Of a stretch of DNA of 64,000 bases, positions 984 to 62,170 are shown piece after piece. The translations under genes and the position numbers were made by a program. Source of the DNA: Perna viridis (taxonomy: Eukaryota). The stretch is from NCBI GenBank assembly GCA_037379345.1, contig CM074520.1, positions 17,277,488 through 17,341,487 on the forward strand, in the 5' to 3' direction. How positions within the stretch are numbered: position 1 is the first letter of the stretch; every line of letters begins with the position of its first letter. The notes below the pieces were generated by a model that was not told where the DNA came from, did not search any database, and worked only from the letters and a program-made list of their open reading frames with translations.

Positions 984-1948
984 ATATTGATTTTTATCCA
1001 CTTTGGCTTGCCATAGATTTTTCTATCGTTATTAGGAATTGTATACGTACACTTGATCCTAAAGTTCTGTATGATGTGTAAAATCAATTGAAGTTAAAAT
1101 TAGTTGAAAACATTTATGGTATTTTCAACTCAAACTCAGCCGATTTTATGTTCTCAAAAGTCTTGAGATGTGTAACCGGAAGTTACCGTACAAAACTAAT
1201 AATTGACCATTTCTCACTTCCCAAACAGAAATTTACGGGTTTTTTTTTCTTTAAAAAATTCAGAGGTTAAAACTTCACTTTAAGATTAATTTTGAATAAC
1301 GACGTTATGAAAGATTGACTATTGTTTTAAAAAAGAAATGTCGGAGTTAGTCTAAGAATCCATACCGTACTGAAGCACGAATCCCCGTACCAGCAAATAA
1401 TTGATACTAACTTATCAAGAATGAAAAATATTCAATAGACAAAATTTTTATCATTGTCAATTCTTATAAATTAATTTTCAAACATATTTTTATCTTTAAA
1501 CATGAGAAAAGTAACTCTGAATTTAACTGAACAGGGGGGTGTCAATATTTTTTTATCCATTGAGATATAACAAAATTATTCTAATCAATCAGATTACAGT
1601 ATTCATCACAAATTAATTTATTGTGAAATATTAAATAAAATTTTACAAATAACAAAAATACCAGACTTGGATTTTTCAGGTGGAAATATCACGTATTAAT
1701 GAAGAAATCGGCAAAAGAGTACGGGGTAAAGTTGGTACGGATACGGTACAGGTTACACATTTCGGTATGTACCAGAAAGGGTATATCTTTCTTGTCACAC
1801 CGGCGCGGTTGTAGGATTAGTAAAAGACAGAGAAACCACAATTACCACTGTATATAGTATTATTAATATATTAATATTATAGTAAATATTTGTGTGTAAA
1901 TAATCAATCATTTTAAGCTGCCTATATATTCTAGATTGAGATTGGATC

Positions 1949-3695
1949 ATGGAAGAAGATGAACTTTCCCTTCATGCTCCAGAAAGTTGGCGTACGGATA
2001 CTTCTGAGGATTCAGGCTGGGACGCCGCTGAATTCTTGGTGTTGGATGAACTAGGTTCAGGCGATGAGGCTATAGATGACAAGAAATCTGCTGACGACAC
2101 CTCCCAAGCAGAAGACGTGAGAATAGTGCAGGTTTCACAGGACGAGGACCAGAGAGTAGTGGAGGATCATGGAATGGCCGCATGCATGTTGGCTCGCCCT
2201 TCCACAAGCGCCTCGTTTTCTGGTGATGGGCGAGCAGCTGTATCCATACCTCGGAGTCGCCTACGCACGTGTTATGTATGTGGCTTACAAACGACGGACA
2301 AGATGAGGCGCCATGTATAGAAGACTCACTTACCATGGTTTTGTTATCCGACCACAGCATGTTGGGAATGTCATACCCAGGAGGTCCAAGCATCCGCAGT
2401 TGCCTTCAAACATGGAGATCATCCCATTGGTTGTACCTTTGATGACGAACACATCCACCATTGGTGTTTACTGGTAAATGGGTCACTCAACAAACTTGTG
2501 TCATGGCTGAACTGCAAGAGTCTGGATGATTTGTTGGTCGTTGTGTTAGATACGGAAGTGTACCGTCCTCTACAAAGCGGATTTTAAAGAGCAGGAGATG
2601 CAATATCTGACGCTTTATGTGGACAACTACAGTGCTTACCAGGTGCATCGGCAGACTTTCAAGCCGCTAAATTATGGAGTCTGCATCGTAAACTTGGAGC
2701 TAGTGGCCAGTCTGCTTCGCCGTGTAAGCCCTGCTAACCAACAGGAGTTTGCAATATACGAACGATATTCAACCTATGAGGGCGCAGATATTCAGGTACC
2801 AGTAAAACCTCTCGATGAGCCATGCCTCTTTATAGACACTCACTTTCATTTGGACCTTGCGACTCAGAGATTAGGCTTCCGCAATTTCCTGCACATGAAT
2901 GAAATCATAGCGCCGAGCAAAAGTCATGGGTTTTATTCTGGCGTCGCCAATTATGTTTTCCCCAGGAATTGGAAGAATTGGAGGGAACAGGTAGGGTATG
3001 CAAAGACCGTATTCGTTAGTTTTGGAATACATCCTCATGAAGCTCAGAAGGGATTGACAAGTGCCCTTAGGCAGGAATTGAAATCGTTGCTGGACCACGA
3101 ATTATGCGTCGCAGTCGGTGAGATAGAACTCGACTACACCACCAGGTGCCGTTGTGATCCGTGTCAGAACCCGATTGTTTGTGGGAGGAAGATGCGGTTT
3201 AACCAGGACGTTTTCGGGACCCTACTGCAGATGGCCAAAGGCCGACAGTTGCCCATTGTCTTGCACTGTCGTGACGAAGGAGACGGATCTGCAGCTGCAC
3301 GAGTCTTAGAGATCATACTCGATACAGGGTGCTCAGGAATGAAAATCCATAGGAATTGCTTATTGGGAAAAGTACAAGAGCTTATCCAATGGCAGGACAT
3401 TTTGCCACAGACGTATTTTGGGGTAACTTGGAAGACCATACGAGAATGCCCAGCTGTTGTACCAAGGATCCTTCCTAACAGGCTACTTATAGAGACTGAC
3501 GCTCCATTCTTGTCACCATATCCATGTACCTCAACCAGCCATCCTTGGAACCTACCAGCCGTTGCTGTCGAGGCTAGTCGTTTGAGGAATGTGCCATTGT
3601 CCATCCTTAACTGATCGACCAATCAGAATGCTATCCATCTGTATGTCCTGAAACCGCGGGTACCGTCTAATCAGGGGCCAGCACGCCCCGTTTAG
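1949..3695 (+). pseudogene. Intronless acidic N-terminus + Cys/His zinc-finger-like region + TatD-family nuclease, disrupted
   Basis: TatD motifs FIDTHFHLD, FGIHPH, AVGEIELDY, IVLHCRD, LLIETDAPFL and the C-terminal NAIHLY. N-terminal CYVC..RRHV*KTHLPW..ACWECH. Stop at 2318-2320, +1 frameshift in the T-run at about 2582-2585, in-frame TGA at 3612-3614, final TAG at 3693-3695. Confidence 0.85.
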
Positions 3696-4437
3696 AACCC
3701 CTCAAAGTAAAGTTACCGTCATTGTACTTTAGTTTCCGTTAACTCCAGGAAGGAGTCAAATTCCATATCTGTGATACTGCATTTCCAAATATCCAAAGCT
3801 CTAATGAGTGAAAAAGGTATTTTCATAGAATTTCATTTCTACACTAAAAAAAATCATTGGTGAAAGAGAATCAGAATGACTATTTTTTATTGATATATAT
3901 AGCTACACTCACAAATTAATAATTCATTATTTGTTCATTAAAATAATGTATGCAAGGTTTTTTATAGTATATTTCAAACTCCTTGGTGTGTGTAAGCAGA
4001 AAGAATAAAGACACTAAAATTATGGACCATTCTGACTTGGTTGGGGCAACCCAATTTGCATTTTGGGCAAATATATGTGTATACGTGGTGCATACTGATG
4101 ATAAGAATGTGTGTTTACACCATGACAAACACAATGTTCGCTGTTTCAACGTAGATTGTGTGTTAAAAAATCCGAATTAAGTTTCTTTCAAACGCATGAA
4201 AAATGGAGGGGAGAGACTTGAACCATTTCATGACTAATCCAATCAAAGATAATGCGTTGAATCAGGCTAAACTAACTGAGTTCGAAATCCATCGCAACAA
4301 AGAGTGTTTGTTCCAGGTTGATAATTCACTCAAATCATGTCATAAATGTATTAAATGCTCAGTCTTCAATATAAACTACTGCACAAATACACGCAACATC
4401 GTCTGCTATGTAAGTAATTGGCCTCAAGCCATCTAAA

Positions 4438-4904
4438 GGTTACAGACCACCAATTCAACCAATGAGCATTTGGAACGTACGCAAAAATAGCCATACGCAG
4501 AAATTACCCCTGTTCCTCATAGTGCTGTGAAAAAAGTTCTCATCTTATTTAAAAAATTTAAACAGTTTCTGAAAGGAAAAACATTTCTGTATATTTTATG
4601 GGTGCATTTTGCTTCTTGTGATGTGAAGCCTAATCTCCATAATGATTTCTAAATATACCCCTATCTTGTGAAAACACTGGGATTTCCAATGCTATTTATA
4701 GACACTTCACTTCCGGTGACCAGTACTGCACTGCAAGTCTGTTAACCCCACATGCCATTCTGAGGATTGTGAGCTGATATATGTAGAATCATGCTGATAT
4801 ATAGTCCTCTGCAGGTTAAAGTTAAGGTAAAGTCCAGAGAAGCCATTGAATATTGTGAAATTAGCATAGAAGCCTATGGGAAATGGAATTAGTGGTTTCT
4901 AGCC
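4438..4904 (+). mobile_element. ~467-bp non-autonomous TIR element (Kolobok-like; possibly a solo KolobokP-type terminal repeat), copy 1
   Basis: Imperfect TIRs GGTTACAGACCACCAATTC / GAATTAGTGGTTTCTAGCC, flanked by TAAA on both sides. A near-identical inverted copy lies at 6914-7384. Confidence 0.7.
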
Positions 4905-4949
4905 TAAACACACACACACATCATTAATACTGCTGAATTAAATCATGAA

Positions 4950-5379
4950 AATATGGAATTTGACTCCTTCCTGGAGTTAACGGAAACTAAAGTACAATGA
5001 CGGTAACTTTACTTTGAGGGGTTCTAGACGGGGCGTGCTGGCCCCTGATTAAACGGTACCCGCAGTTTCAGGACATACAGATCGATGGCGTTCTGGAGTT
5101 AACGAAAACTAAAGTACAATGACGGTAACTTTACTTTGAGGGGTTCTAGACGGGGCGTGCTGGCCCTGATTAAACAGTACCCGCAGTTTCAGGACATACA
5201 GATCGATGGCGTTCTGGAGTTAACGGAAACTAAAGTACAATGACGGTAACTTTACGTTGAGGGGTTCTAGACGGGGCGTGCTGGCCCCTGATTAAACGGA
5301 ACCCGCAGTTTCAGGACATACAGATCGATGGCGTTCTGGAGTTAACGGAAACTAAAGTACAATGACGGTAACTTTACTT
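4950..5379 (-). repeat. ~122-bp tandem array (about 3.4 units) derived from the 3' end of the TatD ORF, in inverted orientation
   Basis: Units start at 4971, 5093, 5214 and 5336. The reverse complement matches 3624-3768. Confidence 0.92.
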
Positions 5380-6399
5380 ACCAAGTTTTGAAAATATATC
5401 AAGTCTATCAAAGTGAACCCCAACATTATTTCAGCAACAAATCAGTAGAACTATAGATTCATCATACTTACTTTTTAGATAAATATTATTTCAAATACAT
5501 GAACAGTACATGTATTTTCCAATATTTTTTATTATGTTATGGCAATGATTAAAATCTTAGACACATGGAATGGTATGATGATAGTCTGAAGTAAGGGATG
5601 GTGTTCTATTTTTTCCTCCAAGTACATGTAGCCATAGACATTTAATACTTATTACTGACCGATCTTTTCATGATAACTTGTTGCCAGACAAAATTAATAT
5701 GGAATATATTTAATTTTTTCTGTGTTCTAAATTGTGGAATCTCAATGAGTTTGACAACCATACCAGTATTTCATCCAGTTTTGCAATGCTAGTGGGTTAA
5801 GCTTCCATGAAAGTAGCAACGACATTTTTTTTATTTTAGTTTGTATGAGAACAAACCTAAGTATGACCCATTACAGTCCCATATGTACCACATTGATTTC
5901 AGTGCAGTGAATTTTGAAATGAAAAATGTATTCCTACATGTTTCTGTTTATAAGTGTATTTAAAATTATAGTATATGTTTTTTGTGTAATATAATGAGGT
6001 GAGGCGTCAAAATGCAACAAGTACTTGTTATCTCCGAATTTTACTGACACTTCCGAACACAGTTGCCTCCCCTGTCAAGAACGAAATTTTAAATAAATTG
6101 ACAGAATTGCATTTAACACCACTTCGCAAGTAAAAACATTCACTGCAGCTCAGAAATATATCGGTCCTTCATTGTGTGAAATATCTAAGTGTTTCAAAAT
6201 CTAGAAATTGAGATATCTTTATTTTTATTTCGCTAGGCGGCGAATTTTTGACAAGGGCCCGGCTTCAAGGGGTTGGTCTGGAAAAAGCTAACAGAATCTC
6301 TTCTGTGAGATATTTTGGCCCTTTTATTGCTGTATCTTAATGATAAAATGAACAAGGATGTGCAGCATATCGGTTAATTTTGCCGATGTAATCGATGAA

Positions 6400-6702
6400 G
6401 CTCTAACGAGTCGATTTTTCAGTGCATGTTTTGGCGGTGAAAAATATCGCATTCTGGCGTCATGTGTCACGTGACTTTTGCAGATTGCCGTCGCCATTTA
6501 TTGACTTTGGCTTTCGGCAGTGACCAGGCCTTTTCAAGGAAGGGTCGAGTGTGGTGCGTAGCTCTTAATACTTAGTTACTTCCAGTGGAACGAGTACACA
6601 ACTTTAACTGACGTCAGTTTCCGGTATATATTCTGATCATCGTGTGTGCTTATTTTTGTTCTGTTGTCAGGATTCACCAGAAGACGGATTATTTGGGTGA
6701 GT
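6400..6702 (+). promoter_or_regulatory. CpG-rich promoter-like region with a candidate first-exon donor
   Basis: TTTTGGCGG (E2F-like, 6429-6437), GTCACGTGAC (E-box palindrome, 6466-6475), CGCCATTT (YY1-like), AACTGACGTCAGTT (CRE palindrome, 6606-6619), TTCCGG (ETS-like), donor GTGAGT at 6697. Confidence 0.5.
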
Positions 6703-6913
6703 TATTACATTTACTTCGTATATTTGATGATTATTGTTGTGTAGTCACTCGGACTCCACGACACTATTAAAGTAAAGGTTTAATTGAGTTGATCCGTAAG
6801 TGCTTGAACTGTTACTTACTGCCCGTGTTTTTATTGTAATTCATGTCAAACGACAAATGATGTGTTAACTAAGCTCGGTCATGTCGGTAAAATGATTTAC
6901 TAATGCGGCTTTA

Positions 6914-7384
6914 GGCTAGAAACCACTAATTCCACTTCCCATAGGCTTCTATGCTAATTTCACAATATTCAATTGCTTCTCTGGACTTTACCTTAACTTT
7001 AACCTGCAGAGGACTATACATCAGCATGATTCTACATATGTCAGCTCACAATCCTCAGAATGGCATGTGGGGTTAGCAGACTTGCAGTGCAGTACTGGTC
7101 ACCGGAAGTGAAGTGTCTATAAATAAATAGCATGGGAAATCCCAGTGTTTTCACAAGATAGGGGTATATTTAGAAATCATTATGGAGATTAGGCTTCACA
7201 TCACAAGAAGCAAAATGCACCCATAAAATGTACAGAAATGTTTTTCTTTGCAGAAACTGTTTAAATTTTTTAAATAAGATGAGAACTTTTTTCACAGCAC
7301 TATGAGGAACAGGGGTAATTTCTGCGTAGGACTATTTTTGCGTACGTTCCAAATGCTTATTGGTTGAATTGGTGGTCTGTAACC
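6914..7384 (-). mobile_element. ~471-bp non-autonomous TIR element, copy 2 (inverted relative to 4438-4904)
   Basis: Reverse complement of 4438-4904 with few differences; flanks TTTA / TAAA. Confidence 0.75.
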
Positions 7385-9487
7385 TAAATTTATCCCCGGT
7401 GCAGATTTCGTCCGGCATTGTTTTTCTTTTATACATTACGTTACAATTTCTGGTCGCCTGCATTCCAGGAAAACAAAATTTTGGGAAAACATTTAATTCA
7501 TCAATTTTAAGACCGTATTTTGAAAATCTTGCTTACATTTAATCATAAAGATGTGAAGGGAATACTGTCATACCTAACTTCCTATCACCTCTGTTGTAAG
7601 GTCAGCGGGTACAAAAAATTTAAGATGTTCAACAAGATTTGACACCCTAAATTAATACACATTGTTTAATATACCAAGACACTTATTTTAATGTTACTTA
7701 AGATATGCTGTAATACTACTGCATCTAACTGCTGTTTAAAAATATACAGATGTAAAGGAAATAGAAAATTATGTCTTTCTTTAAAAAATTGGTTTAAAAA
7801 ACAGGACTTTCTCGAATACAAAACTATGGCTAATGGAAATGGCTAGATTGCAGGATTTTGCACCAAATATCCCAGATGGGGGGCCTTGAGCGGACCCTGG
7901 CCGTGAAGGTCATGCCCCAAGACAATGTCACGTTTAACATTTGTGTCAGTGACCTGTTTGGGTTTTTTCAATTGAAAGATTTTATTTGTCACTGATAAGT
8001 AATATGGATCAATGGTCTCATATTCGATGAAAATGTCATCGAACATTGCATTACCTGAGAAAATACTATGGTTACCAAAAGTTTTTACAAGATTAAAAAA
8101 AGCAAAATTGGATACATATTTTAATACATAATGTGCAACACAGTCCAGTTTCATCACTTTTGATTTTTTAAAACATAATCTGAAATGTTTGCCTCATTTC
8201 CCATCTTTACATTTACCCTTGGAAAACAAAATTGTGGCGACGATCTTGAAAATTGCTCTTGTCTTCTCCATAGTTTCCATTGCTGCTATTGCCAAGGAGT
8301 GTCCTTCTTGGATGCGTGGCTACTGTAGTCGAGTGGGGTACGACTACATTAGATGTAGAGGGGGTGACTGTGTCTCCATCACCATGCCCGTAGCCAGAAA
8401 TTTTCAAAAGGGGGAGGGGGGGTATTTGTGCAAGAAAAAACTTAATAAGTCCCCGTAGATTTATTAAAAAAAAATTATATCTGACTTTTTTTTATCTGTC
8501 TTCCTTTTTGATTTGATTTGATTTTATTTTGTTTTACACTTGTTTCAGTTCACAGACAGCTGAACTTATGAAAGGATTTGAATGGAATGTTGAATCTGAG
8601 GATGGTAACACTTCAAAGAGGTATTGTTTTCGTTCAATCATCATTGTCTGAATTTTATTAGGGTGAGGGGTACCGATCATGAAAACCGACGTTTCATTTA
8701 GATGTGTAGCAATCAGAAGCATTAAGACATATATAGGATAATAATATCTATATTGCAGTTCAGTTTATCAGACGTTTGTGAGACTGAGTCCTGTTCCTGG
8801 ACCTAGTGGTGTAAATGGCAGACATAATGCGCTAGTTATATTATGATTTTACTTGATCTGATGATTTTACAATGCAACATTAATCAATTGTCTAATTGAT
8901 AAAACAAATCAGAATTGATTCAATCTACATTTTTTATCATGATGTTTTTAAAAGTGTACATACATGAACAATTCTTTATTGATTAGATGAGCAAATTCAA
9001 AGCAGTTAAGAAGTTGAACATTACAATGTATGTTTGATTGTCCAGATGAATATCTGTATCACTATATGAAAAAAAGCATGTGCTTCACTTTTTAGAGGAT
9101 CTTCATTAAGAAAAAATACCTATTTCTTCTATCTTTTCAATGTATTTCTCTTAAGTCTACCTCTCCTTCTCAATTCACAGGCATTGATTGTTATCTTATT
9201 AAATCAATTTTGATTGTAGAGGGATCAAACGGATGTTTGAAAAACTGAATAGTAATGATTCTGAAGAGGAAACAACGTAAGTGTAGTTTTACATCTGCAC
9301 GTTACCAATTCATTATTGATAACACTGGGGTAGGAAGGATTTTTTTTATTGGTACGGCTTAACAGTAAATTTTCAGAAAAATACTATATTTTATACAAAA
9401 CGTAAAATATTGGTACTGATTTTTGAAATTATTGATATGACTGGAACAGCAGCAACTGTACCGCTTCCTATGCGCATGAGTAATAAT

Positions 9488-12450: not shown

Positions 12451-13007
12451 GCCTTGTGCAGGATGTCTAAAAAGTTTATGTAAATATGGTTAAAGTGAAT
12501 ATGAATCTACAAAATATAAGGCCAAAAGAAAAAAGAAAAACAATGTGAACTTCTTTTCCGCATGCCTGTGCCTTGTGCATGATGCTAAAAATTACATGTA
12601 TTTTATCTATTCATTTGTTAATTCAAAACAAACAATTTCTTATCATTTTTCTATATTATAACTATTTCACCATTGATCAGTAATAAACCTGGAAATATTT
12701 TTTTCTTGCAAATTAATAAATTTTATTTATCTCTTATTTTATCGGAGAAGATCACCTAGAAACTATAGACAATTATTTCATTCAATCTATTATCTAGTTT
12801 AATTTCGCTAAAACATTTAAAAAAAAATTCTTCTTTAAAAATACTAATAAGTTTCTCTTGTTACTTTATCAAAATATCTTTACATTCATTTTCATTTCAC
12901 CCTAAATAAAAAAAAAGAAAAATTCTGGACGATATTTTACTGCTTCTTGTCGCTATTTCTAGACGCTTCTTGTCGCTAATTAGTGAGACCCGCGGTTCTC
13001 GGATTTA

Positions 13008-13020
13008 TTTTCGCGGGAAA
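13008..13020 (+). promoter_or_regulatory. E2F-type site TTTTCGCGGGAAA just upstream of the FANCB ATG
   Basis: Matches the E2F consensus within a small CpG patch; E2F control is typical of replication and repair genes. Confidence 0.5.
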
Positions 13021-13048
13021 TCTATTTTCACTTTCACTTTTAACCAGC

Positions 13049-13957
13049 ATGGAAGCTTACAACAGTTCTAACGGAAAACTTCTGCATATTTCTCAAAATA
13101 TCACAAGTAAATACAAGCCAAAAATATCATTAACCAGAAATGAGTACGACTTTAATAGCTGCACTTTTTTAATTTGTGAAAGCTTCGATTTTCAGTGTCC
13201 AACTCCACAGGCACAGTCAAAATGCATCACTTTTTGTTCGTGTGAAGAAACTCTCACTGACATTAAAATCTCAGCTTTACTAATAGAAAATATAAATGGA
13301 AAAACAATAGATTACTACATTATTGCATTTTCTCCTAAGAGATCACAATTTACACCTTTGCGAAAACTTCAGCTGACCAAAAAATTACTAGTATTCAAGC
13401 TTGTTGATGGACCCACTATTGTATGGATTGAGGATGAATCTCTTTACATAGGAACCTCTTCATCACATAATCAGTGTCGTTTATCAATATTCACCGTAGC
13501 TGGAAACTTACAGGAGGCAAAATTGATAGAAGTAAAGCAACACATGGGATATTATGCTGTTGTAGGAAAGCATAAAACAAACGAAGACACTATCAGTTTA
13601 TTTTTTTATGTTCTTGTTCCTTCTCAGCAGATGTTTGGAACCTATACTGTAAAGGAGTGTGATGTTGGCACAATAGTTTCCCCTTTATATACAAATATTA
13701 GTGGATTAATTTTCGAAGATGTAAACATTTCAATAAAATGTGACAACTTGAATATTGAAAGTTCAGTATTAGCAGTGACAGAGGAAGGATATATTTTGAA
13801 TTTTATTGATGGGCAACTTGTATTTGCTGTGCAAACAAATTCACATTTGGTGTTAGATGTTCATATATTCTATTTCCAATGTATCCCAGTTCAGCAAAAA
13901 TATCTTGGCATATTCAGTGAGGGTGAGGTCAGAATATTTAGCATCGAAAAGAGAGAG
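13049..13957 (+). CDS. FANCB: FANCB coding exon 1
   Basis: ATG at 13049, 303 codons of beta-rich sequence, donor GTGTGT at 13958. Confidence 0.8.
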
Positions 13958-16900
13958 GTGTGTAATAAAAATTTCAGAGCTTAAGAAAGCTTGCATTAGA
14001 GTAAATTGTTGTCATTTGTTTATGTGTTTAGTTCACAGTAATTGTTTAGAATAACAATAGAACACAATGATCACTATATTGACATTAAAATTCAAATATT
14101 AAGTATTAAAAAAAATATAACTACTACACTTCAGTGCTTTTAGCTCTATTCTTGCTGACATCCCTTTCACTTCTGTTGCAGAAAAGTTCTTCAGTGAAAA
14201 ACTCAAGTCATTTATTTCATTTATTATATTGAGGTCTCACTTTGTTTAATAGGCGTAAGATCGGGTGACATTGCAATTGGAGCCAAGGGAACAGAAACTT
14301 GATTTGATTACTGCAAAACAATTCTAAATAGATAAATATATTATAGAATCAGTTCAGATATTTTTATGTTTGGAGGTATATTTCCACATAGCTATTACAA
14401 TATGGGAAACCACCACTCGCCAGCTCGCCAAATATGAGTAGATGTGTAATTTGGCGAGTTCTCATTAGCTTATACTTTTCAATTTGGCGACCGTCATTTG
14501 ATTGGCGAGTTCCAAGGAAAGTTAACCAGCCAACAGGTTATTTAAAATGTAAAACATCCCTTAACATCATACATTAAAAATATGTTCCCTACATTTTAAG
14601 ACGTTTAGCTTGAATATGTCAAGTGAATTTTGGCATGATATGCACAATTTTATTGACTTGTAAGCATTGTTTACGATCTGTTGTACATTGTATGTATTCA
14701 AACGAAATTATCTTGGTAATTTGAGATATGTTACCTTACATATTAGTTGTTTATTGTGGAAATAAAATTGAACAAGAAGCAAATGATAAACATTTTCTTG
14801 TTTCATGATGAATCTGTTGAAATATAATTTTATTTTTAAAGTATGAGTTCAGAAATGAAGTACTTATCCTGTTACTGTAAAGTACATGAAAAACTTCAAT
14901 GGGAGGTAATGTTCGAAAATGGAAAAGTTTTTGATAAATTTAAAAACAAATGAATTTGGCTAGATGAATTTCTATTTGGCTAGCAAGATCAATATTCCAC
15001 TAGCCAGAATGGCAAATTGGGAAAAAAATGGTTTCCCAAACTGCTATTACGCTTAGTGCAGCCTTTAAATCTGATATCCTTTCTTTGGTATAAAACCTTA
15101 AATCCGCATTCACCAGATTCACTGTATGGGGAATGTGAAATTTGTCTATTATTGAATTTGAGTAATCAAGGGTACCAAGATTCTAACGTAAATGAAAAGA
15201 ATTCCCTTCAGGGCCAAAGACTGGACACAGAAAACAGACACACACAACAAAGAACATAAAATAACCAAAATAATACATACAAAGAAACAAAAGTAAATGA
15301 GCAACTCAACTAAAAAGTTGGAGCTTGGACCCAGTGCCCCAGTAAGGTAAGCGTCCTCAGCTTTTGTATAAACAATTTTATCAAGATCTTTTACATGAAA
15401 ATTTTCAGGTTCACCATAAAATCATACCTACTACATGTATATGGAATTTAATCTTTTTATGTCATCTTTCTAATTGATATAGAATACTGTGGAAGTACTT
15501 TAATTCGTGGACACCAGTTTTCGTGGATTAGGCAAAAACATAAGTTTGTGGATTCTTGAATTCTTGGTTTTGAAGTTTTCAGTATACTCATCGTTGAAAA
15601 CCATATTTCATGGTTTGGCATACCCATAAAAACCACGAAAATTGGTACATGACGAACAATAATACTTTCACAGTAATGTGTTTTTTCAATGAGAAAAAAA
15701 CTTTTTCCAACTAGTAGATTTCATTATTTGGGGTCATTTAATGAGAATACTTACAAATACTAGTTTAAGTTCTATGGTTAATTTCATGATATCCCTTTCT
15801 TTTAATAAAGCATTATTTATGAAGAGTATTTCAAATTCAGGTAGTTCATTCTTGGTCTGGAATCAAGGAGGTTCTGTGTGATGATTTTGTAAATAATGGA
15901 GGTCATCAACTGCTGGTATTGACTGAGGGCTTTGATGGCAAGTCTGGGTTCATATTGACTGATGTAGATATCGTACACACAGACACTACCAGTGGAAATG
16001 TTCAAAGAGAAAGTGAATCTGATAGAACTAACACTACAGCAGCAGTCACAGCTTTACAATCAAGATTGAGGGTATAATATATGGAAATGATTAAGATTAC
16101 AATTATTCCAATTTTAACAAATTTCAAAATCTTACTTACCATAGTGAAACTTTTAAGATGCAATGGTTTGTATTTATTGTCCATTCCCTCTGATATGTTC
16201 TCTTTTTTTTTATTAAAAAGTCACAGTTTTTTTTTTGCCAAAGAAGAAAATTAAAGTTTTCAAAATGACAAATCTAAGAAATTACTATTCAGCAATGCAT
16301 TAAGGTCAAACTTTGCTTTTCTGATGAATGCAAAATTAAGTCTAACAACAACGTACCGGTATTTTAATCTGATATTGTTTGTGCAGATTTGATATGACTG
16401 CAAAACATTTTGCTTTGTTATAATAGTATATCACAGTGTTCATTTTCTGTAGAGAATCTGTTTTCATGCAATAACTTAACATAACGAGAGGTAAGGTGTA
16501 TATTTCAAAGAGACAAAAACCCCATTGGGATGAAAATGTTAGGCCAAGGCCACGACTTCAATGAACAACAAGGAATCCCTCATACCAAAGAGCAGGCTGC
16601 AGCTGGCCCCTAAACATCATTACACACAGGTTCAGCAAAAGAGTTACCCCTTTATACTCAAGTAATATAAAATTAAACTAAAGGTGGAAACAAAACAAGA
16701 CATACAGAGGCTAGAAATTTCTGATTTGGGACAGGCGCAAAAATGGGCCAGGTTTAAGTACCTTGGCTTCATCACAACCCCCCCCCCCCTTCAAAATCTG
16801 ACCACTGTGGAAAAATATTACACAATTAAACATACATAAAAATCAGTTCGAAAAGGTCGGAGTCCCTTGTGACAATAGAAATCAAGAAACTGAATATAAA

Positions 16901-19900: not shown

Positions 19901-22900
19901 CTTTGATTAAAAAAAAAAATAACGGTTTTAGACATTTTTTCTGAATCTGACTTTACTCTGTTTTATAATTTTTCATTTGTGTAATTTGAATAAAACATGC
20001 CTTGTATTCATTTTTATTATTAGGTCATATACAAATTAGTTGCATACACTACCAGGGCACATACTGGTTCTACTTTTAGCCGTGAAAATTCTCAAAAATG
20101 TATCTTGATTCGCCCCAATTCAGATTAAGGTGTCATGTCCGGATCAACGAAGTGTGCCAATGCGGCAAAATCGAACAAATAAGGTCTGGGCATATGTCCT
20201 TTGGATGGCGTAGAGATCGCATGGGAGTTATATGGTGTAAAATGAATGATTGGGTTAGGCGTAGGAACAACACCATCGAACCTAGTTGAATCTCGTACAA
20301 TATAGTGTATCCAAGAATTAAAGGTGGTTAAAGGATAATCCCTCGGCTTTTTTAAAGTCTCAGCTTGTTTCTATGATTCATAACATTTAATCTAATTTGA
20401 AAAGTTTAGGACAGGTAGTCTCAAACACAATTATATATTATTGCAGTTTCTTATAATTGTTCAAGTTTTAAGATTTTTCATTTTTTGACATGTCGAAAAA
20501 GATTCGATTGTCAACATCTCCTGAGGAGAAATGTTTCTTTTGTTAGACATTGATATCCCCTACTGATCTACCAGATAAAGCAGCCCTCAAAAGTACCTTT
20601 TGAAACTAGGTGGTCTTTTGGCCACCAACCTTGAAATTTTAGTGGCCAACACAAATTTTAGGTTGCCAGCCAAAAAAAGTAGGTCGCCAGAAAAAATGTT
20701 ATCACAAGTTCAAGTAATACCATGTATTTTCATTTTGTCTGGGTCATTGACTTTTTTAATTTTTAGTGTATATTTGGTTTTAGTTTTTCATGTTGTCTGG
20801 TGTCCTTGTTCGTTAAAAAACTTGTCAAAAGTGTTTGTTTTACTTTCTCCGCCATTACAGGGAATTAGAAACCATCGATGACACGCTTGAAATCGTTTTC
20901 AAAATCTCGTTACTTTCAAACGTACTGGTGATAATTGAGTAACATATGAAAAATACCGGCTCGGACATGATTTTTTTCTGGATTTTTCGGTCGCCAGTCA
21001 ATATTATTTCAAGTCGCCAATTGGCGACTTTGATATTGTTTTCAGTCGCAAAAACGTTAAGTCACCAATGCGACCATTTCACTAGACTAAATTGAGGGCT
21101 GTAAAGTCAAAGCGGGATATACTCTCCTGGCAAAAATATCCTTGAGTTCAAAAGATTGAATGAGATGCCAGTACCCTTAGATATAAGTCGAATAGATGAT
21201 GACCAGGGTATCGAAATAATTTTAGATAGTATATAACTCTGCAAATTACCATCATTCTTGCAGGCTATTTTTCAATAACACAAAATGAGAAAGTACCATG
21301 AAACGAAGATCTGTTAAAACTGAAGATCAAGGTGAAACATCTAAATTAATCAGAAAAAGAAGCTCAGTTGAGAAAGAGGATGTTGCAAAAAGATTCTTGT
21401 GTTCAAAGAGTAACCAAGATTATAGTGGTAATCAAAAGAATGTAATCCAGGGACAAAGACCAGACATGGAAAAGAGACATACGCAACTGAAACATAAAGT
21501 AACTAAAATCATACATACAAAGTAACAAAAGCAAATGAGCAATTCAGACTCCACTAAAAACTGGGAGCATGGACCAGGTGCACCGGTAGGTTAAGCGTCC
21601 TCTGCTTTTCTAGAAACACCCGCCGAGTTGCTCATAAAAAGTCAAGTCCAGGGTAGACTAAAGAGGAAAGGAAAACTATGACATGTTGAACAAATCAGTT
21701 TTCATGGCACAGATGGATACACCGTAACGATCCACGAGTTTATGATGACAACCATAAAACTTCTGTAGTGATGATTTCAATCTTGTAGCAACATAACCCT
21801 TTTCCAGAAGCCTATTTGTCAGAGTTCTAGCGCAATACAAAAAGTCTACGTAGTCTCGGCAAGCTCTGGCATAACGTATGAGTTGTGATATGAACACTCC
21901 ATGCGCATGTGTGGAAGGGATACATCATAATGCTAGTACAAGAGGGACTTAATCGTTGTGCTTTCGTCTTGCAAGATCAAAATCTTTTTTTTTGCAAAAT
22001 GTCATTGCACAGGAGTTAAATTACCACCTAAATGCTAACGTCTTATACAATCGCGAAAGGAAGGTGTTAATTAAACGAAAAAATTTCTGACAAGAAAAGT
22101 GAGGAACTCACTAACGAACTGTTATTTGCAGAACTTATTACCATGTAGATGAATCTCAAAGGGCAAATCCTGGTGATGTTGTCTTTAAACTTGCTGATCC
22201 TTGGTCATTGTACGAGAAAATGTTGCGTGATTTTCCCCATCCTCAGTAGATGTCAACTGAACTCACCTGAAAAACAGATATAAAGCTTACCACAAAGGGA
22301 GGGAGGTAATATTTGTGTTCGAGAAGGATGTTGGTCAGTCGATGCTCACTTCTAGCGATTATACCAATGCTATGTATCTGGAAAGGCAGCAGAGATCGCG
22401 CCAGAGGATATGAGTCAACACAAGATACGTGTCAGTAGCACTTTTGACGAAGTATCCATGACTGAATGAAACCGTTTCTGAACTCTCTTCTAGCTCAAAT
22501 TGAAAATTGAGTTATTGATTCTGATCTGGCCATTTCTCAATTATTACTGTGTAACTTTCATAAAAAAGCAGCTAATGAAGGCAATTGTCGAAAAAATATT
22601 CTACTGATTGTGAGCTTCCTTTTGCGATCTATGTTGGACTCCTTCTTTTTACAAAGACAAGAAAGTGTAATTTTATTGATTTGTTATTTGAACATGGTAT
22701 TTGCATATCGTATGATCTTGTTCTAAAATTTGTACTGTATTAGATGATGCTGTGATTCAAAAATATTTGGAAAATGATGTGGTCTGGCCTTCACTTTTGA
22801 GGAAAGGTGTCTTCACGACTTTAGCTATTGGTATAGCCAATCACTAAAACTCTCTGACTGGAGGCAAGAGTCCTACCTTTTCCACGCTTAAAGGCTGTGA

Positions 22901-25900: not shown

Positions 25901-28900
25901 TTCTTTTTTTTTGTTGCCATTTTTAAATCATAGATATTTTTCTTACCGTCTTTATTGAAAGACAGGTTTCCATGCATTTTTTGTATATTGACAATCGTAC
26001 TTAACAGAACTCTTAGTTTTACTCATAATTAAGTAGCTGACAAAGTTACTGTGTCATTGTTTTACTGTTTTGTTTACCTTGGATGAGACATCTGATATGC
26101 AACTTGACGAATGTTTCTAGATAATATAGGACACTTACCTTACCAGTGCACCTGGCCCATTCACAGTGCTTTTTATCGGAATACAGGTTGTTCATTTACA
26201 TTGGTTTCTATGTACTGGTATGTGTCATTTTGGTTACTTCATGTTCTTTTTGTGTGTGTATTTTCTTTATCATTGGTAATCTTTCTCCCTGGATTATGTT
26301 TTTTAAATTACCATTCGAAATTGGTTCCTTTGATTTGTTTTTGAAAACATGGTTCAACATTTTCTGAAATCTTCGTTCATTTTGGTTCTCTTTCAGAGTT
26401 ACAGAGAGATGTGCTAACACTGAATTTTGTACAAGTTTTGATGTTGATGTTAGTTAAATCAACAAGATTTCCACTCTCCCAGCTGTCACTATGGCTACAG
26501 AAGAAAGCTGGTGCAGTATGGGTAGAGGAATATGACTGCATGGTCTTTGAATGTAAACCAGTATTAAAGGGTACCAGATTGTATCTAGATAATAGTTCTG
26601 GAACCTCAAAGGATGTAAAGATGAAAATTTATACAAGGTAAAATAAGCAACATTTTTGAAAGCTGAATGAGGGGTATGTTGTTTTACCCTTGTCTGTCTG
26701 TCTGTCAAACTATTTTTGTATTTGTCAAACCTATTCCGTCACTCTTATGAGGCTGACTTTATAGCTGCTTTGATCTAAAAGAAAGAATATCGTTTGGCTA
26801 GATCCTTTAATCTCAGTTTCCGCTATATAGATGACATTATCTTTAAACAATCCTAATTTGGGATTCTACTCAAAAGAACTTGAGATTGAGGATACTACAG
26901 ACATTGTAAAGTCAACCTCATACCTTAACCTACACTTAGAAATCGATGGTCAAGGAAAACTTTTGACCAAACTTTACGACAAACGTGATGACTTTTCATC
27001 CAGAATTGTCAACTTTCCTTTCATCTGTGGCAACATCCCTTCAGCACCTGTGTATGGAGTGTTCATATCACAACTCATACGTTATGCCAGAGCTTGCCGA
27101 AACTACGTAGACTTTTTGTATCGCGCTAGAACTCTAACAAATGGGCTTCTGGAACAGGGTTATGTTGCTACAAGATTGAAGTCATCACTACAAAAGTTTT
27201 ATGGTTGTCATCATGAACTCGTGGATCGTTATGGTGTATCCATCTGCACCATGAAAACTGATTTATTCAACGGTTCATAGTTTTCCTTTCCTCGTTTGTC
27301 TACCCCGGACTTGACTTTTTATGAGCAACTCGGCGGGTGTTTCTAGAAAAGCAGAGGACGCTCAACCTACCGGTGCACCTGGTCCATGCTCCCAGTTTTT
27401 AGTGGAGTCCGAGTTGCTCATTTATTTTTGTTACTTTGTATGTATGATTTTAGTTACTTTATGTTCTTTGTTGTGTATGTCTGTTTTCCATGTCTGGTCT
27501 TTGTCCCTGGATTGCATTCTTTTGATTACCGCTATAACCTTGGTTCCCTTGATTACTCTTTGTAAAAGTATTCTCTGCAACCACTTGTTACAGTCACTTT
27601 AGTCACTTGATACTTTGGTGCAAGCTTCAGATAGGTGTATTATTTTGTGGATTTGAATTTAGATTTGTAACACTACAATTATCTTTTATATTTTGATCAT
27701 ATACTTATGTTGGGGTACCTGTGGAATCACTAAAGGGCATTGGCTCACAGGTTTCTTGTTTTAGAGGAGAAATATTAAGCATTATTAAGAAAGTTTTATG
27801 ATCTTTTTAAAAAAAACAGTCTATGAGAAAAACTTAGAACAGTTCGCCATTTCTAAATAAAATGTTCTTCAGTCTTGGAAGACTCAGAAGGATTCTAGTT
27901 GTTTTCATATTTATTGAGACAGAACCTCAGTGACATCTTGTAAGGCTTAAAATTGTTCTGTTGGAAATGGCTTAATTTGGATTTTATAAGTTAACATTTT
28001 AATGCAGGTGAATAGGGGAGTTTTTTTTAAATATAATTTTAGGCTTTGCCTATGAAGGAGAGAGCTCTTTGTATTCAAATAACAACTTTGTTATGGGTGA
28101 TGTATTGGTCAAGGGTAAATATGCTAGACAGTCTGATATGCACTGTGAATTCCTTCAAATATCACTTTTTAACTACATAATTCATTTCTGAAATAAATCA
28201 GGAAATCTCACATATTCCCACCAGTTGATACATCACCGATAGCAACATGGCTGTGCATCATCCAAAGTTGTTATTGAGTACTGGAAAATAAAACCAAGTG
28301 TTTTGACAAATTTGAAGTATTTGAAAATCTAGTGTTTGTAGCTGGTTATAAATGTATGAGGTTCAGTACAAATAGGTTGGTTTCTCTAGGCAAACCTTGA
28401 AATTATATTACTTCCATAGGGTCCAGACATCCAATAATTCTAAGTTTACCATAGACTTTGAAACTGTCAAAACAATAATTGTAGGAGATGTAATCCATTC
28501 CTAACAAGTTTTGTCATGTTTGTCATTTGGTCGAAGAATAACCTCATAATCTCATTTAAAAAGGTGAAGGCTTGGTTATCCATTGAGTTTATGGTCAAGC
28601 ATTTATCATACCAGCTTAATATCTCTACAAATTATAGCAACCACTCATTACTTGCTGTTAAGCATGCTAAGCTAATTATAGGTCTTTACTGTACATTAAC
28701 CTGACAAGGTGGTGGAGATGTAATCTATGGATTTTAACATGTCATTTATGACATTGTAAGAAGATTTGTATTTTTATCTTCGATTTGATATTCAAGTAAT
28801 TTAAGTACAACTGTTTATATGAATCAGACTGGGCATTCTTATATTCTGGATAAAAATTGATTTTATTTCATTATCAATTCCCAAGCAAAGTTTGGGGGTA

Positions 28901-56169: not shown

Positions 56170-56361
56170 CTCTTATTTGTAGGGTAGACTTAATCATAGT
56201 AACTCTTACAAAATTTATGTCCACCCTTAACAGTTGTAAGTAAAGTAATAAGGGGTTTTAAATGGGGTTTGGCACTTTTCAAACCCAGCAATATACCTCT
56301 GTTAGTAAGGACTATTTGTGAAGTTTTGTTATCAAATAAATCGAAGTTTCATCATCTAAAC

Positions 56362-56930
56362 GAGTAATCAAGGGAACCAAGGTTATAGCGGTAATCAAAA
56401 GAATGTAATCCAGGGACAAATACCAGACATGGAAAACAGACATACACAACAAAGAACATTAAGTAACTAAAATCATACACACAAAGTAACAAAAGCAAAT
56501 GAGCAACTCAGACTCCACTAAAAACTGGGAGCATGGACCAGGTGCACCGGTAGGGTAAGCGTCCTCTGCTTTTCTAGGAACACCTAGTTGCTCATAAAAA
56601 GTCAAGTCCGGGGTAGACAAACGAGGAAAGGAAAACTATGATCCGTTGAATAAATCAGTTTTCATGATGCAGATGGATACGCGATAACGATCCACGAGTT
56701 CATGATGACGACCATAAAACTTCTGTAGTGATGACTTCAATCTTGTAGCAACATACCCCTGTTCCAGAAGCCTATTTGTTAGAGTTCTAACGCGATACAA
56801 AAAGTCTGCGTAGTTTCGGCAAGCTCTGGCATAACGTATGAGTTGTGATATGAACACTCCATACGCAGGTGCTAAAGGGATGTTGCCACAGATGAAAGGA
56901 AAGTTGACAATTCTGAATGAAAAGTCATCA
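56362..56930 (-). mobile_element. PLE family A, 5'-truncated copy
   Basis: DDFSFRIVNFPFICGNIP...KTDLFNGS plus the 3' UTR. Confidence 0.88.
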
Positions 56931-58638
56931 TGTAAAAATAATACCAAAGGACGTTAGAATAGACACGTGGTTGATATCTACCTGTATGTCCAGACCTGCT
57001 AAGCTATTGTATGGGCCTGTTAAAATGTATGCAATTATTATATAGTTATTTTCAAAAGACGGACATACAGCGAAAACCTACCAATATAGCTTACTATTTA
57101 GATTTTAGTGCAACAGCATGGTGTATTTAATTCAGGAACTACTATAAAATTTATCATGAACAAATCAGCATTTTGTCAATGTGTTACAGCATAATCTAAT
57201 TGATCCTAACTTAATAACAACGTCATTGAACTTGTTATATTGAACTAGTGTGAGGAATCCATTAGATTTTTCAAAACTTTATTTATTATTCATTTTGCAC
57301 AAACTTGTAGAATTCATAAACCAAGATGGCAAAGCACCATTTGAAAGAAAACCCACGGACATTAATACCGTCTGTACCCGATTTTTATCCCCGCTCTATG
57401 CTGGAGGTATATAGTGATTTTGGTGTCCGTCCGTCCTCTACGATTTCGTTACAGTATACATATCAAAGCCACTTGCATGGTATTTGAACAATAAGATTTC
57501 CATTTCTTGGGATTCAATTCAGTTGGAGCTGGATCATAGTGCAAAACGTGTAACGTTATTTTTTCTCATTGTGTGAGACCTTGCCACACCTTGCTGACCT
57601 TGCCATAAATGTTCTTTACCCGGGATACAAATGAAAATCATCCTTATGTAACCTACCAACAAAATGAAACGCCCTGTAAATTTTAGAAACACCATTGTGT
57701 TTGTCTGCTGGGGATTCCATTTTCATTCGAGTAACCTCTATTTTCTGCACCCGAATCCGAACATCGATTATAGAGACTTCGATATTATACCTGCTCTTTC
57801 GGGAGGTAAAAACAGGACAAAATATGGCTGTATCCCGAGCTTCGCAAGTAGGGAATATGAACTTTATATAATCAATAGTAACGAACGCCTGTGTTTGAAT
57901 CGGAAACTGTGTAATATTACATAAATTCGATGCTAACTGATTATTTTATCCTTTAATGTAAAATTCCCGTTCTAATAAAAAAAAAAAAAACAAAACAAAA
58001 AACAAAAAACAAAAAAAAAACAAAATGCGCATAGACATGTGTATGATATGTTTTATAAAAGTTACGTTGTAGCGATCTTTGGGTTGCTTATGATGTTGAC
58101 CGGGAAACAGTTTATGACCCAGATTTAGCAGCTGGCAATGAATATTCTTAAATATCGGGGCGTGCTAATGTATATGACCTATATAGTATTGTAACTAGTC
58201 TTAGATCCTGAATCGGAAACCGTATAATGTCCAAAGCTTATTGATTATTTCATGAAACCTTCCCGTTCTCATACAAGCAAGAAACACACGTACGATACAC
58301 GTGTTTGATATTTAAGAGGTACATTTCTATCTCGTATGAATCTGGAACTACGACACTTTGGTGGTGAATACGGCGAAGATCTGTTGGATTATGTGGCGCA
58401 TGACTAAACATTAATGCAAATCATATGCGAATATTATATACAGAAATTACGAGTGCAAGAAGTCGCTAACACTATTAGCGACTTAAAAAGAAAAACTAGA
58501 TAAAGGAGAAAAAAACATACAAAAATACATACAAAAACAATAAAAATACAAATAAAAAATATTGACTTAAAATGTAAAACGTAATGCCTGATTGAATTGA
58601 AAAAGATTTATCAAATATTTATTAAACCTTATCTAGAC

Positions 58639-59052: not shown

Positions 59053-59270
59053 GACAACGCATTACATAGTTTTCTTCCGGACATGAATTGGGCCAATAAG
59101 GTGTACAAACCAAGCCAAAAGGATTTTTTTTGTGGAGGCTTGAATTATTTGCGTCTTTGTTTTCGTTTTGCTTATTTACTTTTTCTGTCTCATTGCTTTG
59201 TCACTCTATTTTTACATATTACCTTTAACATCGTTCATTTTCTTTCAAACTTTCAGGGTATTTATCTTAA

Positions 59271-62170
59271 AGAGTAATCAAGTGAACCAAGATTCTAGCG
59301 GAAATCAAAAGAATATAATCCAAGGACGAAGACCAGACATGGAAAACAGACCTACACAACAAAGGACATAAAATAACCAAAATAATACATACAAATTAAC
59401 AAAAGTAAATGAACAACTCGGACTCCTCTAATATACACCACTAACGAGTATAGACCAGATGCACAGGTAGGATAAGTGTCTTCTGCTTTTCTAGAAACAC
59501 TCGTCGAGTTGTTCATGTTAAGTCCGGAGTAGACGAAATAGGAAAGCTAAATTTTAACACACTGAACAAATCAGTTTTCATGGTGTAGATGGATACACCG
59601 TAACGATCCACGAGTTCATGATGACAACTATACAACTTCTGTAGTGATGACTTCAATCTTGTAGCAACATAACCCTGTTCCAGAAGCCTAATTGTAAGTA
59701 GTCTAGCGCGATACAAAAAGTCTGTCTAGTTACGGCAAGCTATGACATAACGTATGAATATGATATGAAAACTCCATGCGCAGGTGCCGAAGGGATGTTA
59801 CTACAGATGAAAGGAAAGTTGACAATTCTGAATGAAAAGTCGTCGCGTTTGTCGTATAGTTTGGTCAATAGTTTTCCTTTACCATCGATCTCAAAGTTTA
59901 GGTCAAGATACAAGACTGACTTCACAGTGTCTGTAGTATACTTTATTTCAAGTTCTTTTGGGTAGATGTGATGTATAAAATCCCCGAAACTAGGGTTGTC
60001 TAACGATAATACGTCATCTATATCGCGGAAACTGAGATCTTGATAAACGATTTCCCTTCTAATGGATCAGATAAGGTATAAATTCAGCCTCATAAGAGTG
60101 AAGGAACAGGCCAGCAAGTAGAGGAGCAGAATTTGTTTCCATTGGAATGCCAATCGTTTGTCGAAAAACGCATCAACCACACTGGATAAAAAATTTGTCG
60201 ATAAAAAATTCCAGCATTTTAAAAACTTCTTCTGTGTATTTGGGAGACTATTTTGAATTATTGTTTCACAGTATGAGGAATCTCTACCAAGAACTACATA
60301 TTACGTATACATGTTGTATTATCATATAAACTTAAAATGTTTGGTGTTGTGAAAATAGTTGAAAATGGTTCAAATCTTATTTGTCATTTAGACAACAATG
60401 TGTTGGTTGGAATGGTACTTCATCAAAACCAAGGAATAATATATAGGTGTACCTCAATGATCTATCTTGGGGCCTTTATTTTTTATTCTATTTGTTAACA
60501 ATTATCCTGATTGTTTGGTTCATTCTCATGCAACTATATATGCTGACGATACATCTCAAGATGTTGCTGATAAATGTATTGATGTTATTGAAAAGAAATC
60601 TCTAAGAAGATCTTGTAAACTCAATAAAATAGACGCAACGTAATAACTTACAATGAACCTTAAAAAGACTCAATGCATGCTTATTGGCATTCAGCAGAAA
60701 TTAGCACAATGTCGCAAAATTTATATTAATATAGACAATATTGCATTAGAAACCGTTGAGCATTCCAAACTTTTAGGTATTAATATTGATTGTTATTTAT
60801 CTTGGTCTTATCATATTGATTTTTTAGCAGAAAAATATCTAAGAAAATTGGTGGTTTTTTTATGTCACCTGAAGCGCTTTAAAAGGCATACAACTCTGCC
60901 ATTTTTCCTCATTTTAATTATTGTTGCACTTTATGGTCTAATTCCAAAAATGTGGCAAATATAGATAAGATTTTTTAAACTACAGAAAAAAACTGCACGT
61001 ATAATTTTGAATTTGCATAACATTATGATACCATATAGTGTATTATTTAACGGATTGAGGTGGATGCCAATGCCTGATTATATAATTTTAGTGTTCAAGT
61101 CACTTCATCAGTTAACACCTGAGTATGTATTTAAATATATACAGGAGGTGAGCTCTAGAAACACCAGACAGAGCAAAAGAAATTTATTATATATACCAAA
61201 AGCTCGAACAGAATATTTTAAAAGGTCCTTTGTTATGTCAGGTAGCTTGTTATAGAATAATTTACAATCGAGCATAAGAAACTGTTCGACAATTGAATGT
61301 TTTTAAAAGACATACTTAGATAATTACTTTAACATGTCGATAACTAGACATTTTGTAGTGAATTATCTATTTAAAATTGTTATTTCATTTAATGTGTATT
61401 TTATACTTTATGTTGTAAATTATGCATATAATGCAGGACCATATTGCAAACTAGTCTTCGGACTAAATAAGTAATTCTGTTGAAATAAAGGACTTTATTA
61501 TTATTATTATTACATATTTGTACCGTCTTTTTTTTAGTAACAACGATGTATAATGTTTTTGAGCCGGGATTTCAACTGGGTATGGGGGAATAGAACTAAA
61601 GAGTTGAGAAATAATAGGCTTTTCTGCTATGGTATTTTGATAATAATCTTGAATTGATTGTTTCCAGAAGATCTTTCAAATTCTTCAGGATCCACATTAA
61701 TACCACTATGGGAGTAACAAGTGTCATGGTAGGACTGGAGAACCTCTTTGGCAGCTGTGAGTTAAGAAGTTAAAAGTTTTGAAAGAGGTTTTGTGGTACA
61801 TTTTGCAGACCCAGCTATGTAGCGCTGTTTATATGGATTCTTGTGGAGTTTAGGAATCCATTACATAGACGGTAGATCACAAACATCGTCTTTGGGAGAG
61901 AGACCATAAAGTTTATGGGTTTTCACTATTTCTTCTTTGGAGAGTTTGGTAGCAGTTTAGGTTATATTACTGTTTTTATTTTCTACGTCTACCTCTGAAT
62001 TATAGACATTGGATGTAATACGTTTTGCAGAGAAAAACAACGTTGTTTTGGGCTTTGTCTGCTACTTCGAAAACATTTATCATGTATAATAGTAGTATGT
62101 TTTTGCTACATCGGGGTTTTTGAAAATTGACAGAGAATCAATGTCTTTTTGAAATTTATAATTTAATGTA
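59271..62170 (-). mobile_element. Longest PLE family A copy (decayed RT), interrupted by a LINE
   Basis: Minus strand: ADKAQNNVVF, WIPKLHKNPYKQRYIAGS, WILKN, FSTL..PHTQLKSRL | insertion | GIPMETNSAPLLA, RDIDDVLSLDNP, LYDKRDDFS, 3' UTR. Confidence 0.82.
60303..61510 (+). mobile_element. CR1/L2-clade LINE, 5'-truncated
   Basis: KWFKSYLSFRQQCV, GVPQ*SILGPLFFILFVN, LYADDT, KLLGINID..LSW, KRSF; AATAAA and (TTA)n tail; 8-bp TSD TACATATT at 60295-60302 and 61511-61518. Confidence 0.88.

Follow-up and report, generated by a model that had tools for sequence, protein, structure and literature searches.

How does a gene for a TatD nuclease come to stand in a mussel genome without introns, joined to zinc fingers and followed by what looks like the defined end of a mobile element? 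This question is raised by a 64,000-nt stretch of Perna viridis (contig CM074520.1, positions 17,277,488 to 17,341,487; hereafter the window), near whose start such a gene lies. An original prediction, made from the letters alone, had placed it in a multicopy mobile family of possible rolling-circle type, with TatD as cargo or core gene. We find that the gene is the third open reading frame (ORF3), in the slot of env, of a Ty3/Gypsy long terminal repeat (LTR) retrotransposon, an assignment that we consider close to certain. One Gypsy clade carries TatD as an accessory third gene, which the prediction had allowed; as an enzyme that defines a new superfamily, TatD does not stand. The window copy is itself dead, a decayed, 5'-truncated and internally inverted fragment of such an element.

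The nature of the element is seen in its sister copies. A genome search with window positions 1900–3800 found three other close copies, 87–93% identical and all on contig C3: B at 53.34 Mb, C at 18443141, and D at 57.53 Mb (57533643). Upstream of ORF3, these copies have frames for a gag-like protein, a protease with a DTAA motif, reverse transcriptase (RT), RNase H and integrase, each copy with deletions of its own. The pol order protease–RT–RNase H–integrase was assembled from B, C and D together, and a continuous RT–RNase H–integrase frame is found at C12:14.44 Mb. In copy B, integrase lies upstream of the region matching window position 1799; the window copy holds nothing of the element upstream of that position. 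The LTRs of the copies are identical at 184–188 of 204 compared positions, and no LTR match was found upstream of the window copy, whose 5' LTR is lost. The primer-binding site (PBS) of copy C is the exact complement of the 3' end of the host tRNA-Ser(AGA), with 36 perfect genomic matches against 0 for a reversed control. At C14:8565126–8615345, genes for tRNA-Ser(AGA) and tRNA-Trp are repeated in tandem in units of 870 bp, with 36 matches. LTR pairs flanked by 4-bp target site duplications occur at three loci: C15:7.60 Mb, where the LTRs are 97.7% alike, C15:20.93 Mb (95.0%) and C12:29.46 Mb (88.0%). For the second of these, the empty site is present in RNA reads, with a 4-nt overlap; no such duplication was found at C12:14.44 Mb. 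The ORF3 of copy C ends at the equivalent of window position 2987 and that of copy D begins at 2988, the two lying 39 Mb apart, and the 4 bases outside the 5' LTR of C equal the 4 bases outside the 3' LTR of D. Possibly, C and D are one element split by a rearrangement.

The association of TatD with Gypsy elements extends across the genome. A Pfam search for TatD gave at least 43 matches at 37 loci, or 38 loci with copy C. A Gypsy pol on the same strand, no more than 8.5 kb upstream, accompanies 27 of these 38 loci, and 26 once the window's own hit, which matches a distant and unrelated Gypsy (28% identity), is dropped; one of the 26 supplied the query. Among control stretches, 1 of 28 has a Gypsy pol, and this is the same unrelated element. 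Together with the RT and TatD trees described below, this linkage upholds the prediction of an intronless TatD in a multicopy mobile family, as opposed to a simple retrocopy of a spliced host gene. The 11 TatD loci without pol comprise three host-like genes, four loci that keep the N-terminal module of ORF3, and four fragments. Of the host-like loci, one is TATDN2, a separate spliced gene on C1 with an exon that shares 96% identity with a Mytilus californianus protein; the second, on C6, is TATDN3-like; and the third is an exon that, from its motif, we take to be TATDN1-like. In the TATDN3-like gene (C6:39172635–39173363), a single exon covers 240 of the 253 Pfam positions, so a TatD gene can be almost free of introns without being mobile.

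The RT phylogeny ties ORF3 to a single lineage. We fetched 40 of 150 RT hits (the nearest and chosen representatives), among them four more ORF3 loci, and built a tree of 57 rows from 62 loci, five having been dropped for a short RT. The query came from an ORF3 element, and its near kin are oversampled in this tree. Of the twenty rows labelled ORF3, one is set aside, since its RT lies downstream of the TatD and does not belong with it. The remaining ORF3-linked RTs, 19 of 19, fall in one 25-row clade with a support of 98 in the Shimodaira–Hasegawa-like approximate likelihood ratio test (SH-aLRT), and ORF3 is found in 0 of the 27 rows with integrase outside it. The tie to one RT clade makes ORF3 a heritable trait of a lineage rather than stray cargo. 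Two members of the clade, L141 (C4:46.73 Mb) and L146 (C14:4.20 Mb), have a different ORF downstream of pol. The genome also holds a very young Gypsy family (for example L161, at C2:53577340), with 21 RT hits of identical score, many in frames of 1,316 codons; the one copy tested lacks a TatD ORF3.

The ORF3 of the window is a pseudogene. The single-exon frame of about 580 codons with two stops and one frameshift that had been predicted is borne out, with in-frame stops at 2318–2320 and 3612–3614 and a frameshift at about 2575–2590 (Table 1). The same holds, from the sequence and from Pfam, for its predicted makeup of an acidic N-terminus, a CxxC..H..H / CxxC region, a TatD domain and a Cys-rich insert. 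The Pfam domain TatD_DNase (PF01026) matches positions 2832–3602 with E=1e-32. Unbroken relatives of this ORF3 are 549–600 aa long and 44–58% identical to it, and across 95 relatives the finger residues C, C, H, H, C and C are invariant or at least 90% conserved. The seven active-site positions of TatD are kept in 63, 60, 62, 63, 62, 65 and 62 of 66 ORF3 rows, and six of the seven are kept in the window copy. With HxH plus E, H, H, E and D as ligands in a TIM-barrel TatD fold, ORF3 belongs to group II of the TatD family, for which HxH is the motif, as in TATDN2 and TATDN3 (PMC10085689; here and below, statements from cited papers refer to the portions of them available to us). An insert with at least three Cys residues is present in 28 of 55 scorable ORF3 rows and missing from the four TATDN2 rows compared.

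Structural models agree with this domain layout. In the AlphaFold model of P0006, an unbroken relative, an acidic and disordered start precedes a folded middle part and then a TatD barrel that matches YcfH, TatD and TATDN3 (E 4e-14 to 2e-12). The N-terminal module of a relative is modelled at a predicted local distance difference test (pLDDT) score of 90.5. The best structural matches of its first part are tandem C2H2 fingers, weak at Z 4.1, and its helical part has no clear fold match (best Z 3.2). Searches with the N-terminal model gave no Foldseek match at E<=0.001 and no VIA-align match at Z>=5, which is not evidence of a new fold.

Where did the nuclease come from? ORF3 proteins form one side of a branch in each of three quick trees, none of which contained a full TATDN1 (support 85, 75 and 97). 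In the last tree, which included 15 near prokaryotic or viral TatDs, ORF3 adjoins the eukaryotic TATDN2-like proteins (94), and prokaryotic TatD and the TATDN3-like gene are separated from both (99); all 15 fall apart from ORF3. An approximately unbiased (AU) test does not reject a grouping of ORF3 with mollusc TATDN2 (p 0.143). To judge from these protein comparisons, the donor was likely TATDN2-like. A recent retrocopy of the host TATDN2 was considered and rejected: the window ORF3 lies deep among ORF3s, apart from bivalve TATDN2 and inside an LTR element. A recent bacterial or viral donor was likewise rejected, as the best 80 prokaryotic loci (from 8 of 64 parts scanned) and two viral ones are ordinary TatDs, 24–33% identical and without the finger module.

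If the gene belongs to an LTR element, why did it appear to end at a hairpin? The prediction had taken TTCCATAT for the fixed 3' terminus of the family, a reading that the sister copies overturn. Copies B and D, like the inverted piece in the window, run on for about 230 nt into the polypurine tract (PPT) and LTR, and the match between B and D extends more than 400 nt past the TTCCATAT point. In both, ORF3 is followed by sequence that the window carries inverted at 4951–4904 and 4437–4252, and then by 6520 onward into the LTR. Because of this order, and because of the flanks of the repeat involved, the apparent defined end is private damage of the window copy: TTCCATAT is an inversion breakpoint within a second, unrelated repeat. 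BLAST matches of other copies to 1900–3800 halt at 3768 because the window copy is broken there, and the 4-nt overlap at 3765–3768 is the breakpoint taken earlier for an element end. A second TatD copy had been reported at 4950; the homology, over 4951–5095, does halt at 3768, and it is a 145-nt minus-strand duplicate of 3624–3768 together with a tandem array, not a copy of TatD. The hairpin sequence is likewise present at 3739–3759, but as a stable terminal signature it fails. Its 5-bp stem (−3.8 kcal/mol, z −1.0) is at chance level, with 30 of 200 shuffles folding equally well, and in B and D it is internal, the stem having one more mismatch.

These results bear directly on the idea of a rolling-circle (Helitron-like) element, or a new TatD-defined one, ending at TTCCATAT. 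The hairpin-like sequence 9 nt before the divergence of the two in-window matches and the shared halt at 3768 had spoken for it. Against the defining features of Helitrons, the hairpin-like sequence near the apparent end is the only likeness: the window end is not an end, there is no CTRR at the break, and the frames upstream in B, C and D, read by eye and by tblastn with no Rep or helicase profile run, are gag-pol. We give this idea next to no credence. The element is a Ty3/Gypsy retrotransposon, and its 3' end is the LTR.

The rearrangement that produced the false end can be followed in outline. In other copies of the unrelated repeat, about 0.6 kb separates its two pieces, which are oppositely oriented, and their flanks continue. 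A public DNA run contains the unrearranged joints 4255–6520 (opposite-strand) and 4436–4912; the run may itself be of the source sample, and B or D could be the origin of the joints. In the simplest history that we can infer, the repeat inserted just before the PPT, and an inversion with duplication then turned around the tail of the Gypsy element together with part of the repeat. Coordinates are collected in Table 1.

Table 1. Features of the ORF3 element copy in the window and of the sequences that interrupt it
Feature	Positions	Strand	Basis or remark
5'-truncated pol-ORF3 spacer remnant	1799..1934	+	homology to copies B and C starts at 1799
ORF3 pseudogene	1949..3695	+	581 codons; ATG at 1949, final stop at 3693-3695
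Two predicted C2H2-like zinc fingers (CxxC..H..H / CxxC..H..H)	2270..2422	+	conservation across relatives; model of a relative
Conserved helical domain, after the fingers and before TatD	2423..2828	+	alignment; confidently modelled in a relative
TatD nuclease domain, HxH (group II) type	2829..3645	+	Pfam, fold of a relative, active-site count
Cys-rich insert after GExxxDY motif	3147..3182	+	marker of one sub-lineage
Weak hairpin in 3' untranslated tail, not a terminus	3739..3759	+	TTAACTCC-AGGAA-GGAGTCAA, 44 nt past the stop
Inverted 491-nt piece of unrelated dispersed repeat	3765..4255	+	47 genome matches; flanks common among those copies
Inverted distal part of Gypsy 3' tail	4252..4437	-	colinear with the tail in B and D
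High-copy 476-nt insertion	4437..4908	not assigned	second, inverted copy at 6910-7385; empty-site joint 4436-4912
Inverted proximal Gypsy tail, including duplicate of 3624-3768	4904..5095	-	colinearity with B and D
Tandem array, 122 nt x3.4, built from ORF3 end and tail	4971..5379	-	
Rest of the same unrelated repeat as 3765-4255	5380..6518	+	57 genome matches
Polypurine tract	6536..6549	+	12/14 purines, directly before the LTR
3' LTR, TG...CA, 214 nt	6550..6763	+	same sequence 5' in copy C (before the PBS) and 3' in B and D

Several other features of the window deserve mention. The 476-nt element is present at very high copy number, has inserted in other TatD-Gypsy copies too, and is abundant on both strands in the RNA runs. 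Another dispersed repeat is present in five copies, 75–95% alike, at 1–842, 21412–21921, 26729–27561, 56354–56933 and 59269–60118; this repeat also flanks copies C and D. A single-exon frame of 870 codons at 35762–38374 (+) encodes ankyrin repeats and a Mab-21 (cGAS-like) nucleotidyltransferase domain, and a stop-free frame of 334 codons at 12980–13984 (+) has no Pfam match at E<=0.1.

Relatives of ORF3 recur in Mytilus mussels under other names. They are annotated as 'tatD' or 'uncharacterized' in Mytilus coruscus, M. edulis, M. galloprovincialis and M. trossulus, and several Mytilus loci hold unbroken ORF3s of 587–591 aa. Gene models that join RNase H, integrase and TatD in that order, by Pfam, make up three of nine Mytilus models scanned, and one further Mytilus protein (P0018) joins an integrase zinc domain to TatD. 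A search with the ORF3 profile found 501 clusters at E<=1e-30, and most of the best 150 match both the fingers and TatD. The ORF3-type clusters with a named organism are Mytilus records and one record from a metagenome-assembled genome of Sedimenticola. This last protein (P0044, MES9884743.1), labelled TatD and encoded on a 2.6-kb contig, nests among ORF3s and is likely host DNA in a symbiont bin. A metagenome scan for the context of the protein P0008 gave one weak match of 44 residues. The finger-plus-helical module also occurs without TatD, in two to five matched stretches, in proteins of 1,373–2,992 aa with B-box-like or ankyrin repeats (P0068, P0080, P0136, P0160 and P0167).

What might such a protein do for its element? 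Env is expressed from a spliced mRNA, and ORF3 may be expressed likewise. At 1934, 14 nt ahead of the ORF3 ATG of the window copy, an acceptor scan predicts a splice acceptor (..TTCTAG), and a pyrimidine-rich YAG stands 2–17 nt before an ORF3-like ATG at 9 of 17 loci scanned, a count for which there is no null model. These acceptor-like sites suggest an env-style spliced subgenomic message, from which the ORF3 protein would be made. Its predicted fingers would bind nucleic acid, and by homology its TatD domain would act as a metal-dependent 3'-5' exonuclease and apurinic/apyrimidinic (AP) endonuclease, trimming RNA or damaged ends from the element's own RNA:DNA copying intermediates. In the cited work, TATDN1 and TATDN3 are 3'-5' exonucleases and AP endonucleases (PMC10085689), and in R-loops it is the RNA strand that human TATDN2 degrades (PMC10711561). 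To this reading as a whole, an env-slot Gypsy ORF3 with zinc fingers and TatD, likely expressed from a spliced subgenomic RNA and likely trimming the element's RNA:DNA intermediates, we assign a probability of roughly 0.8. The role of replication helper, argued here from homology, is a tentative preference held at somewhat less than even odds; we nevertheless favor it over counter-defence, an aid to integration and passive carriage, in that order.

Counter-defence is a serious if unlikely competitor. Here, the targets of the nuclease would be nucleic acids by which the host senses or silences the element, such as small RNAs, R-loops, cytoplasmic cDNA or marked bases, and it would degrade or conceal them. 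Such a role would fit the fusion of NADAR to ORF3-type TatD in 4 of 20 long or fused relatives scanned (P0073, P0075, P0137 and P0145), N-terminal to TatD in two and C-terminal in two, and NADAR is found in other retroelements (PMC12477816). It would also fit an ORF3 that is separate from pol and swappable, the co-option of a TatD-family nuclease, QatD, in phage–host conflict (PMC13434339), and the repetition of the finger-plus-helical module in the large B-box and ankyrin proteins. The host target is putative only, however; 0 of 31 NADAR matches in the Perna genome lie at a TatD locus, and a metagenome scan for the context of a NADAR–TatD protein found none. In an integration role, the fingers would bind target DNA while TatD cleared R-loops or processed gap ends at the insertion site. 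The N-terminal part does have DNA-binding tandem C2H2 fingers as its best structural neighbours, and some clade members have, after integrase, a finger that we take to be PHD-like. Given the weakness of that structural match and an ORF3 that is not fused to integrase, we regard this role as improbable.

Finally, a host TATDN2-like cDNA may have been captured once and carried without benefit. The AU result and the almost neutral decay of close copies are compatible with such passive carriage, but families that are only about 20–35% identical have all retained the active-site and finger residues, and more than 100 clusters at 50% identity match most of the ORF3 profile. A passenger would have decayed over such divergence, and we therefore judge passive carriage very improbable. 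The replication-helper reading has its own difficulties, and so does the wider picture of an expressed and selected ORF3. Elements of this kind come with an RNase H of their own, so that a second enzyme to remove RNA is less needed. Five rows of the RT clade with integrase lack TatD (in two, pol runs straight into the PPT, two have a different ORF, and one has neither), so ORF3 is dispensable or swappable. No RNA read fell on 1874–3787 in the 19–25% read of each of three runs, and the best-preserved family has very low RNA depth and no splice joint. The ratio of nonsynonymous to synonymous substitution rates (dN/dS) between close copies is 0.62–0.90, and 1.22 for one very close pair, which is near neutral decay; selection is therefore inferred only from deep conservation. 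In addition, an ORF3 profile was used to choose most of the ORF3 rows for the TatD trees, which favors their grouping, and these quick trees were made without bootstrap.

It is useful to compare the mussel ORF3 with known systems. The nearest precedent is Juno and Vesta, LTR elements of bdelloid rotifers (PMC5408684). Like the mussel elements, they are Gypsy-type and carry after pol an enzymatic, non-env ORF3 of the 3'-5' exonuclease type, with intact catalytic residues, in some lineages only; in both cases, the function is putative. They differ in the enzyme, an RNase H-fold DEDDy exonuclease there and a TatD TIM barrel with a finger-plus-helical module here, and in history, with repeated gains in rotifers against one RT clade in the mussel genome, the host here being a bivalve. 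Env-bearing Ty3/Gypsy elements (Metaviridae), such as the errantiviruses, also place ORF3 between pol and the 3' LTR with an acceptor-like site just before its ATG, and TatD is not mentioned in the available portion of the errantivirus paper (PMC13524379). Their ORF3 encodes a fusion glycoprotein, whereas the mussel ORF3 encodes a predicted soluble nuclease. Cellular TATDN2, or group II TatD more generally, shares the HxH, E, H, H, E and D ligands and is the nearest group in the tree (PMC10085689, PMC10711561); by contrast, the mussel ORF3 is intronless, multicopy, inside LTR elements and fast evolving, has fingers and in some cases has the Cys insert.

A TatD in this position appears to be new. 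The available text on the named mollusc Gypsy clades (C-clade, MolGy1-16 and others; PMC6238403) mentions no third ORF, PMC12709183 yielded nothing of relevance in a term search, and the accessory domains listed in the part of PMC6338049 available to us are a chromodomain, a DnaQ-like exonuclease and a helicase, TatD not being among them. A literature search combining TatD with retrotransposon, Gypsy or transposon terms, judged by listings and with Repbase, subscription papers and supplements outside its scope, found no element-borne TatD. The known precedent is the DEDDy exonuclease ORF3 of rotifers, and TatD as the enzyme of a Gypsy ORF3 appears to be new; what our work adds is the bivalve case, the restriction to one RT clade and the explanation of the false end. 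More speculatively, an old and so far undescribed Gypsy lineage of marine invertebrates could have captured a TATDN2-like nuclease once and fused it to its own zinc-finger module. In some families, a NADAR ADP-ribose eraser would complete a nucleic-acid clean-up kit that counters the marking or sensing of retroelement RNA and DNA by the host, most mussel 'tatD' annotations would be transposon genes, and the finger module would have been reused in large host B-box and ankyrin proteins. This broader scenario is doubtful as a whole.

With TatD, a new enzyme class is added to the few non-env genes known in third place in LTR retrotransposons. The unbroken natural proteins of Mytilus make the role of a nuclease ORF3 in retroelements testable. 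Where mussel annotations seem to show an expansion of TatD, the genes concerned probably belong to transposons, and the same applies to at least one record with a bacterial label.

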